Source: an uncultured Clostridia bacterium (GTDB lineage: Bacteria; Bacillota; Clostridia; TANB77; CAG-508). Taken from it: a stretch of DNA of 64,000 nt. This document shows, in pieces, positions 34,884 to 35,765 of the stretch. The translations under genes and the position numbers were made by a program. The number at the start of each line of letters is the position of its first letter. The stretch's first letter is position 1. The notes beneath the pieces were generated by a model. It worked only from the letters and a program-made list of their open reading frames with translations, was not told the origin of the DNA and searched no databases. The DNA is taken from contig CANRES010000001.1 of assembly GCA_947629625.1 (NCBI GenBank), forward strand, positions 6,511 through 70,510. The letters are read 5' to 3'.

Positions 34884-34932
34884 GAAAAAAAGTTTCAATT
34901 TTTACTTTTTTAGCAAAATTGAAACTTTTTTT
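34884..34932. terminator. Bidirectional rho-independent terminator
   Basis: aaagtttcaattt / aaattgaaacttt 13-bp stem flanked by A- and T-runs. Confidence 0.6.
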
Positions 34933-35266
34933 AATACCAATATGCTAATTTTAATATTGAATTTACTAATTTTGTTTGTTCTTCTAAATCTTCTTTTTTG
35001 GCTATGTTATATTTTTTTTCTTTGATGTTTCTTGCATCTAAAGTCCATAAAAATGCTTTTAATTTTGGATACCTTTTTAAATTTTCCTTCATATATGATA
35101 ATAAATCACATAACTTTTTATATATTTCACTTTGTTTTTTTTCTTCTTCTTCATATTTTTTTATATCTAAAATTAATGATAATGGCTCTGAATTTTTTAT
35201 TCTATAACTATCATTATCTATTGAATTTAAGAAATTTTTATAACTTTCACAAAAAATTCTATACAT
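34931..35266 (-). CDS. Hypothetical 111-aa protein, partner of the upstream NTase-fold gene
   Basis: It overlaps the upstream gene by 8 nt. Charged and helical, with no recognisable motif. Confidence 0.5.
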   Translation of the reverse strand: MYRIFCESYKNFLNSIDNDSYRIKNSEPLSLILDIKKYEEEEKKQSEIYKKLCDLLSYMKENLKRYPKLKAFLWTLDARNIKEKKYNIAKKEDLEEQTKLVNSILKLAYWY

Positions 35267-35765
35267 TATATTTCTCCTTAAAAATTTTTAATTTTTTAAT
35301 GAATTCATTCCTTTTACTTTCAAATAAATCTTCTCTATTTAAGATTTCTTCTATAATATTATTTAATATTTCTTTATTACAGTTTGGAATAATTTCATTT
35401 AAATCTTCAAAATCTTTTTCTGCTAATCTAATTACTTTACTTATTGCAATATCTTCTTTTGATAAAACATAAACATTTATATATTTAAACTCATTTAATT
35501 TTATGGCTCTTTCTTTGTAATTAGGAGATAATAATGTACTTTCATATTCTAACATATCATAATCTCTAAGTAATGAAAAAACTTTACCATATTTTGCAGG
35601 ATACCCTAAGTCTACAAAATCTATATCTAATGTTGCTCTTGTAGTGTATTCTCCTAGAATACATGCTCCACCACCTAATAAATATATATCGAACGGCTCC
35701 ATTTTAAATAATTTTGTTACTTCTTCCATTTCATGAAGAACTTCTAATAAATTTTCTTTTATCAT
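35259..35765 (-). CDS. Nucleotidyltransferase-fold (Pol-beta-like) protein of 168 aa
   Basis: hG[GS]-x9-13-DhD signature: LLGGGACILGEYTTRATLDIDFVD. Confidence 0.5.
   Translation of the reverse strand: MIKENLLEVLHEMEEVTKLFKMEPFDIYLLGGGACILGEYTTRATLDIDFVDLGYPAKYGKVFSLLRDYDMLEYESTLLSPNYKERAIKLNEFKYINVYVLSKEDIAISKVIRLAEKDFEDLNEIIPNCNKEILNNIIEEILNREDLFESKRNEFIKKLKIFKEKYNV

Follow-up and report, generated by a model that had tools for sequence, protein, structure and literature searches.

A two-gene DUF6036 nucleotidyltransferase locus of gut Clostridia as a candidate toxin-antitoxin-type module with a novel-fold partner

In an uncultured Clostridia bacterium, a 168-amino-acid nucleotidyltransferase of the DUF6036 family (NT168) is encoded together with a 111-amino-acid partner (small111). 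The two genes lie in a 64,000-nucleotide stretch of DNA that is referred to here as the window. They appear to constitute a self-contained operon and most likely represent a toxin-antitoxin-type module akin to MenAT/AbiE, an assignment that we favor tentatively and with somewhat less than even confidence. The reversed order of the genes, the acidic nature of the nucleotidyltransferase, the high conservation of the pair, the absence of close relatives on sequenced plasmids or phages and the lack of a PADLOC match lead us to keep two rival explanations alive; one exchanges the roles of the two proteins and the other dispenses with toxicity altogether.

NT168 (35259–35765, minus strand), identified from the list of open reading frames (ORFs) and by Pfam, precedes small111 (34931–35266, minus strand), identified from the same list and from its homologues. 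Both ORFs, as well as their 8-nt overlap (ATGTATAG; 35259–35266, minus strand), are exactly as described in the original prediction made from the sequence of this locus. The ATG of small111 falls within the 3′ end of NT168, and an AAGGAG Shine-Dalgarno sequence is located 7 nt 5′ of this ATG, an arrangement that implies translational coupling of the two genes. That both are real genes follows from their hundreds of homologues and from dN/dS values of ~0.11 for the nucleotidyltransferase and ~0.25 for the partner, which place both under purifying selection. Upstream of NT168 and co-directional with the pair is a gene for a NifS/IscS-type class-V aminotransferase, whereas asd (Semialdhyde_dh/Semialdhyde_dhC, PF01118/PF02774) is convergent with it; these domain matches bear out the asd and nifS-like flanks that had been proposed. 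The 113-nt spacer 5′ of NT168 contains no ORF, and scanning the window for Rfam families and tRNAs revealed nothing near the locus. Outside the pair, a 107-amino-acid XRE-family HTH gene (37222–37545, plus strand; PF01381, E = 3.7e-15) is divergent from the nifS-like gene and is kept with it in the two closest relatives (L001 and L002). Just 5′ of asd lies a candidate 44-amino-acid ORF (33675–33809, plus strand) that begins with GTG, contains four cysteines and lacks a Pfam match.

The pair had been described as lying between strong bidirectional terminators, and this insulation had been taken to favor a toxin-antitoxin insert. On the asd side, folding against shuffled sequences and the A- and T-runs at the edges revealed a bidirectional intrinsic terminator hairpin (34885–34932, both strands). 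Its 18-bp stem is A/T-rich, the hairpin abuts the small111 stop codon, and its folding energy is −15.6 kcal/mol on one strand (z = −5.6) and −17.3 kcal/mol on the other (z = −6.2), values that none of 200 shuffles equaled. A consensus terminator scan missed the hairpin because the scan requires at least three G-C pairs. The hairpin is a terminator common to the convergent asd gene and the NT168/small111 pair. A further terminator on the nifS side of the pair is unsupported, since hairpins in the 113-nt spacer are not significant (z = −1.7 and −0.3). The description, and the argument for an insert that was built on it, hold for the asd side and fail for the nifS side, which carries a promoter-like site and no hairpin. 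This site, TTAACA-16-TAAAAT (35834..35807, minus strand), is positioned 42 nt 5′ of the NT168 start codon, matches the consensus at 10 of 12 positions and is the top-scoring promoter-like site of the region. By itself the site is weak evidence because promoter-like sites in the region do not exceed shuffle expectation. A sigma-70-type promoter, commonly TTGATAaattagcaaaaaaagTGTAAAAT, is found at the equivalent place in most related loci with unrelated flanks, and on this sequence evidence the promoter appears to move along with the pair between unrelated contexts.

The overall assignment of NT168 to a family is secure. A Pfam search, one of the checks suggested with the original prediction, confirmed the guess of a DUF6036-like nucleotidyltransferase fold: residues 5–160 of NT168 cover positions 2–157 of the 164-position PF19502 profile (E = 5e-22; 78.9 bits, with a gathering cut-off of 23.6). 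The GG ... T-x-D-I-D peptide (LLGGGACILGEYTTRATLDIDFVD) from which the guess arose is located at residues 29–52. Alignment of 49 NT168 relatives (A1), which extends down to ~25% identity, revealed that all 49 match PF19502, while 13 also match DUF2204, 11 produce sub-threshold matches to PF08843 (AbiEii; best E = 2.6e-4) and two produce weak matches to PF10706. NT168 itself matches neither PF08843 (AbiEii/DUF1814), even at E ≤ 10, nor PF01909 (MNT), and it lacks an NCBIfam match. A sequence search of the PDB found no homologue of NT168, and the A1 profile returned a single weak PDB match, 5uvd, deposited as a "nucleotidyltransferase-like protein". A scan of PADLOC-DB v2, which had likewise been suggested as a check, gave no match at E ≤ 10 for either protein. 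No mention of DUF6036 or PF19502 was found in the literature searched, and a search for DUF2204 gave nothing relevant. The sub-clade to which NT168 belongs comprises 194 clusters (50% identity, E ≤ 1e-3) among 1.84 billion representatives; it is a narrow branch of DUF6036 with its own dedicated partner family.

In A1, residues D49, R86, D105, K110, D118 and D121 are invariant, and G31, G32, R43, T45, D47, S102 and E104 are near-invariant. NT168 contains the Pol-beta-type hG[GS] and DxD pattern, contributed by near-invariant G31/G32 and D47 and by invariant D49. Candidates for the third acidic residue, read from sequence, are E72 (within L-E-Y; E or D in the closer sub-group) and D69 (conserved in at least 70%). 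The candidate active site of NT168 may be composed of G31-G32, T45-x-D47-x-D49, E72 or D69, S102-x-E104-D105, K110 and D118/D121. The AlphaFold2 model of NT168 (pLDDT 92.3, pTM 0.87) places a strand (residues 25–30) before a GG-capped helix (residues 31–37) and the DxD strand (residues 49–51), and its C-terminal half is helical. When the model was compared with the PDB by Foldseek, the first match was Mycobacterium tuberculosis MenT1 of MenAT1 (8an5_B), with marginal scores (E = 9.7e-3, probability 1.00, TM 0.52). The next matches were the Streptococcus agalactiae AbiEi antitoxin 6y8q (weak, TM 0.33), Helicobacter pylori JHP933 and MenT3/TglT.

The likeness to MenT toxins may extend to the catalytic residues. 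The catalytic sets of MenT1 (T39/D41/K137/D152) and MenT3 (S78/D80/K189/D211) have been defined (PMC10435456), and in sequence pattern and global fold T45-x-D47-x-D49, K110 and D118/D121 of NT168 are similar to them in order and spacing. MenT1, MenT3 and AbiEii are switched off through a phospho-acceptor Thr/Ser, which in MenT1 lies two residues before the Asp and to which T65 of AbiEii is structurally homologous (PMC11375011; bioRxiv 10.64898/2026.01.19.700257). T45 of NT168 appears to parallel this MenT-style phospho-acceptor position. Like MenA1-MenT1 (Rv0078B/Rv0078A), the pair is a two-gene operon whose nucleotidyltransferase is ~170–190 amino acids in length. As in MenAT systems, the partner is a small helical protein with no recognizable DNA-binding domain, and it varies from one family member to another.

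There are also differences from these systems, several of which count against the module that we favor. In MenAT and AbiE the antitoxin gene is upstream (PMC10435456), whereas in the window the partner gene is downstream of the nucleotidyltransferase. MenA1 consists of 68 amino acids and binds MenT1 by a single extended helix (PMC11375011; PMC10435456), whereas the window partner is a 111-amino-acid protein of several helices whose fold has no match among PDB chains. The MenT-type active site is electropositive (PMC10435456; bioRxiv 10.64898/2026.01.19.700257), whereas NT168 (pI 4.9) and nearly all of its aligned relatives are acidic, which is unexpected for an RNA-binding toxin. Unlike MenT and AbiEii, with which it is compared here through sequence and model alone, NT168 does not match PF08843. 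Because it has neither a PF08843 match nor an upstream antitoxin gene, NT168 is not a demonstrated member of the MenT/AbiEii group; we file it as a member of DUF6036 that is putatively MenT/AbiEii-like in its working.

The same family relationships are pertinent to the first rival explanation, in which the pair is a non-toxic accessory two-subunit enzyme: the nucleotidyltransferase would modify a small molecule or macromolecule, and the partner would serve as a specificity or regulatory subunit. We regard this explanation as unlikely. Among the members of the DUF1814 superfamily are enzymes that are not toxins, such as ANT(2'')-Ia, Pb27 and JHP933 (bioRxiv 10.64898/2026.01.19.700257), of which ANT(2'')-Ia, a modifier of aminoglycosides, would be a fitting analogue, and both the PF10706 matches of the two relatives and the sole profile match to 5uvd point in this direction. 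The fold comparison argues otherwise, in that MenT toxins lead the top 50 matches and ANT(2'') structures are absent from them. Partners are also swapped across DUF6036, as judged from the 172–181-amino-acid and 71–99-amino-acid neighbors described below. Such exchange seems to resemble the partner swapping of MenA antitoxins (PMC11375011) and to that extent counts for the toxin-antitoxin-type module.

Analysis of small111 revealed a protein without a described relative in the collections searched. Searches of Pfam, PADLOC, NCBIfam and PHROG gave no match for it, and a sequence search of the PDB gave no relative, although it falls into a family of 562 homologue clusters. The small111 alignment (A2) was enlarged with homologues retrieved by using the most divergent copy as the query and extends down to 23% identity; divergent members include proteins whose source names are Fusibacter paucivorans and Helicovermis profundi. 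In A2, residues R22, P67, W74, E96, L105, Y109 and W110 are invariant, and M1, Y2, F5, F12, Y21, N62 and K70 are near-invariant. Both ends of the protein are conserved and aromatic, with M1-Y2..F5 at the N-terminus and Y109-W110 at the C-terminus. The model (pLDDT 89, pTM 0.83) is all-helical, with seven helices, and its comparison with the PDB (best E = 5.5) and with BFVD gave no fold match. Neither Pfam nor the model revealed a DNA-binding domain or a disordered region; these are typical of type II antitoxins, and their absence counts against the module. The protein is basic in the window (pI 9.05), whereas its counterparts in the Fusibacter-like clade have a pI of 4.6–6. Since the charge of the partner is not kept between clades, we dropped it as a decisive guide to which protein is toxin and which is antitoxin.

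The two genes are co-inherited and co-evolve. We scanned one genome per GTDB species and recovered 43 loci, almost all from low-GC uncultured gut Clostridia. Both genes are adjacent with the identical overlap in ~40 of these 43 species-representative loci, and pairwise identities of the nucleotidyltransferase and the partner are correlated (r = 0.89). The same two-gene architecture is found in the complete genome of Helicovermis profundi and in three long contigs with partner homologues of the Fusibacter-like clade. The surroundings of the pair vary. Its asd/nifS flanks are retained in the two closest relatives only, and elsewhere the pair is located by rpsJ-rplC, behind trmD-rplS, near valS or tsf, and at other sites, with synteny common only to small groups of species. 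The original prediction had contrasted its toxin-antitoxin reading with orthology to a housekeeping nucleotidyltransferase in conserved synteny; a pair kept in ~40 species, with its window flanks in just two of them, does not conform to that contrasting picture.

Decayed copies of the pair were observed in four species (L038, L040, L041 and L043). Conversely, one species-representative metagenome-assembled genome (L003) contains two diverged copies (6001–6835 and 11149–11998) that are ~5 kb apart, each preceded by the same upstream promoter block; they differ by a dS of ~0.27–0.35 and are both under purifying selection. Genes with ORF6N or Bro-N domains lie between these two copies, and such genes are present within the ~6-kb flanks of the pair in nine loci. 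Co-inheritance, varied flanks, duplication, decay and a promoter of its own together indicate that the pair behaves as a self-contained and dispensable unit whose location changes over long periods. Carriage of the pair by phages or plasmids was considered, but close relatives were absent from the sequenced plasmids and phages searched; the viral contigs contain only relatives of 25–40% identity with other partners.

This distribution bears on the non-toxic enzyme from both sides. Strong purifying selection, conservation at a housekeeping level, mostly housekeeping neighbors, and absence from the plasmid and phage collections and from PADLOC are what such an enzyme would lead one to expect. 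An intact pair whose genome position shifts from clade to clade, dispensability as evidenced by decay in four species, and the duplication in L003 argue against it. The slow evolution of the nucleotidyltransferase is housekeeping-like and atypical for selfish toxin-antitoxin loci, and it counts against the module that we favor. Indeed, the nucleotidyltransferase is more conserved than the neighboring nifS-like enzyme (77% versus 61% identity in L024, the one locus with a nifS orthologue common across clades, and 88% versus 84% in L002), an unusual pattern for a gene suspected to be part of a toxin-antitoxin system. The proposal of a toxin-antitoxin or abortive-infection module gains from the overlap, co-inheritance, promoter, duplication, decay, ORF6N/Bro-N neighbors and fold likeness to MenT1, and loses from the lack of a PADLOC match and of mobile relatives. 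On balance, toxin-antitoxin-type behavior of the pair is a plausible fit to the genomic data.

The second rival explanation assigns the roles in reverse. In the type VII system MntA-HepT, an upstream MNT AMPylates a conserved Tyr of the toxin and thereby neutralizes it; the MNT motif is GSX10DXD and the HEPN motif is RX4HXY (PMC7641770). By analogy, NT168 would be the antitoxin and would nucleotidylylate a 111-amino-acid non-HEPN toxin, likely at Y2, Y21 or Y109. Similarities to MntA-HepT include a minimal nucleotidyltransferase gene located upstream of an overlapping gene for a helical partner of ~110 amino acids, a G-G/S ... DxD pattern and conserved tyrosines in the partner. The nucleotidyltransferase-first order with an overlapping partner (as in PMC7641770), the acidic NT168 opposite a basic small111 in the window, and the Tyr residues that are invariant or nearly so at each end of small111 all speak for reversed roles. 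We nevertheless consider them quite unlikely for four reasons. First, HEPN identity of small111 is ruled out: as had been anticipated, it has no Rx4-6H motif, which it cannot carry because it contains no histidine at all, and it also lacks RX4HXY, a HEPN Pfam match and a HEPN-like fold. Its invariant residues include no recognized catalytic motif, as read from the alignment rather than from a motif search. Second, the basic charge is not kept in the Fusibacter-like clade. Third, the nucleotidyltransferase is nearest to MenT-type toxins and not to the MNTs of PF01909, and the spacing of its motif is GG-X14-DXD, not GSX10DXD. Fourth, L040 keeps an intact partner beside a frameshifted nucleotidyltransferase, although this is a single case from a metagenome-assembled genome in which an assembly error is possible. 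An intact partner with a broken nucleotidyltransferase would be a tolerated outcome if the nucleotidyltransferase is the toxin.

It is tempting to speculate that the MenT-fold nucleotidyltransferase is not itself a toxin and regulates a new-fold 111-amino-acid effector, turning it on or off by nucleotidylylating a conserved terminal tyrosine. We consider this improbable. If true, the pair, which is strongly conserved in gut Clostridia, would represent a type VII-like system that combines a DUF1814-superfamily enzyme with a toxin class that has no known relative.

The toxin-antitoxin-type module that we favor suggests a model in which NT168, a minimal DUF1814-superfamily-like nucleotidyltransferase, would act as a growth-inhibiting enzyme. 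It would add nucleotides to the 3′ end of RNA, for example the CCA end of tRNA, in the manner of MenT1, MenT3 and AbiEii. The partner would be a dedicated neutralizer, whose conserved aromatic termini would bind the nucleotidyltransferase and plug its active-site cleft. In addition, small111 might induce auto-phosphorylation of T45, as MenA1 does on T39 of MenT1. Toxicity, an RNA target, physical binding of the two proteins and neutralization of NT168 by small111, rather than the opposite, are all predictions of this model.

The pair is plausibly best described as a variant of nucleotidyltransferase-based toxin-antitoxin systems with a novel-fold partner. Its tie to MenT and AbiEii by fold and active-site pattern provides a testable function for DUF6036, a Pfam family without a described function. 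A dedicated, structurally novel partner in one sub-clade would widen the diversity of nucleotidyltransferase toxin-antitoxin architectures, and the pair is distinct from known systems in its downstream partner, its non-MenA/non-AbiEi fold and its acidic enzyme. It also offers a compact new case in which to ask whether antitoxin-induced auto-phosphorylation is general among such nucleotidyltransferases. Should the module control translation or phage defense, it would be relevant to the physiology of a poorly studied section of the gut microbiota.

Elsewhere in the family, DUF6036 nucleotidyltransferases are accompanied by other proteins. Canonical members in IMG/VR contigs (L069:155–1185, L070:1509–2539 and L055:4920–5992; E down to 4e-59) overlap a downstream gene that encodes a basic protein of 172–181 amino acids (pI ~9.5) with weak Cro/C1-type HTH matches at its C-terminus. 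Homology between small111 and these HTH-like proteins was rejected (hhalign probability 0.6%), and the 172–181-amino-acid protein thus appears to be a second, unrelated partner family of DUF6036 enzymes. In ~20 viral or prophage contigs (L045–L068, for example L056:4695–6108) we observed a 235-amino-acid DUF6036 variant that is extended at its C-terminus. A conserved 71-amino-acid ORF precedes it and, in most contigs, a conserved 155-amino-acid ORF follows; neither ORF has a Pfam match. We considered whether longer DUF6036 proteins (235–317 amino acids) are fusions with the partner and rejected this, inasmuch as the matches amounted to 5–7 bits and those inspected fell on the nucleotidyltransferase core rather than on the extensions.

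Some DUF6036 genes are preceded by an ORF of 71–99 amino acids. The sole plasmid match, on Burkholderia vietnamiensis plasmid pBVIE03 (L075:2612–3525), consists of an unannotated 99-amino-acid ORF with a 4-nt overlap with a downstream gene for a 205-amino-acid DUF6036/AbiEii-like protein. The two are in the classical antitoxin-first order, the reverse of that of the window pair. In a JGI metagenome contig (L078:6945–12321), a DUF6036 gene with its partner is located directly 5′ of a gene set that encodes a WYL-domain regulator and DUF2397, DUF2398 and SbcC-like proteins, a neighborhood that looks like a defense island.
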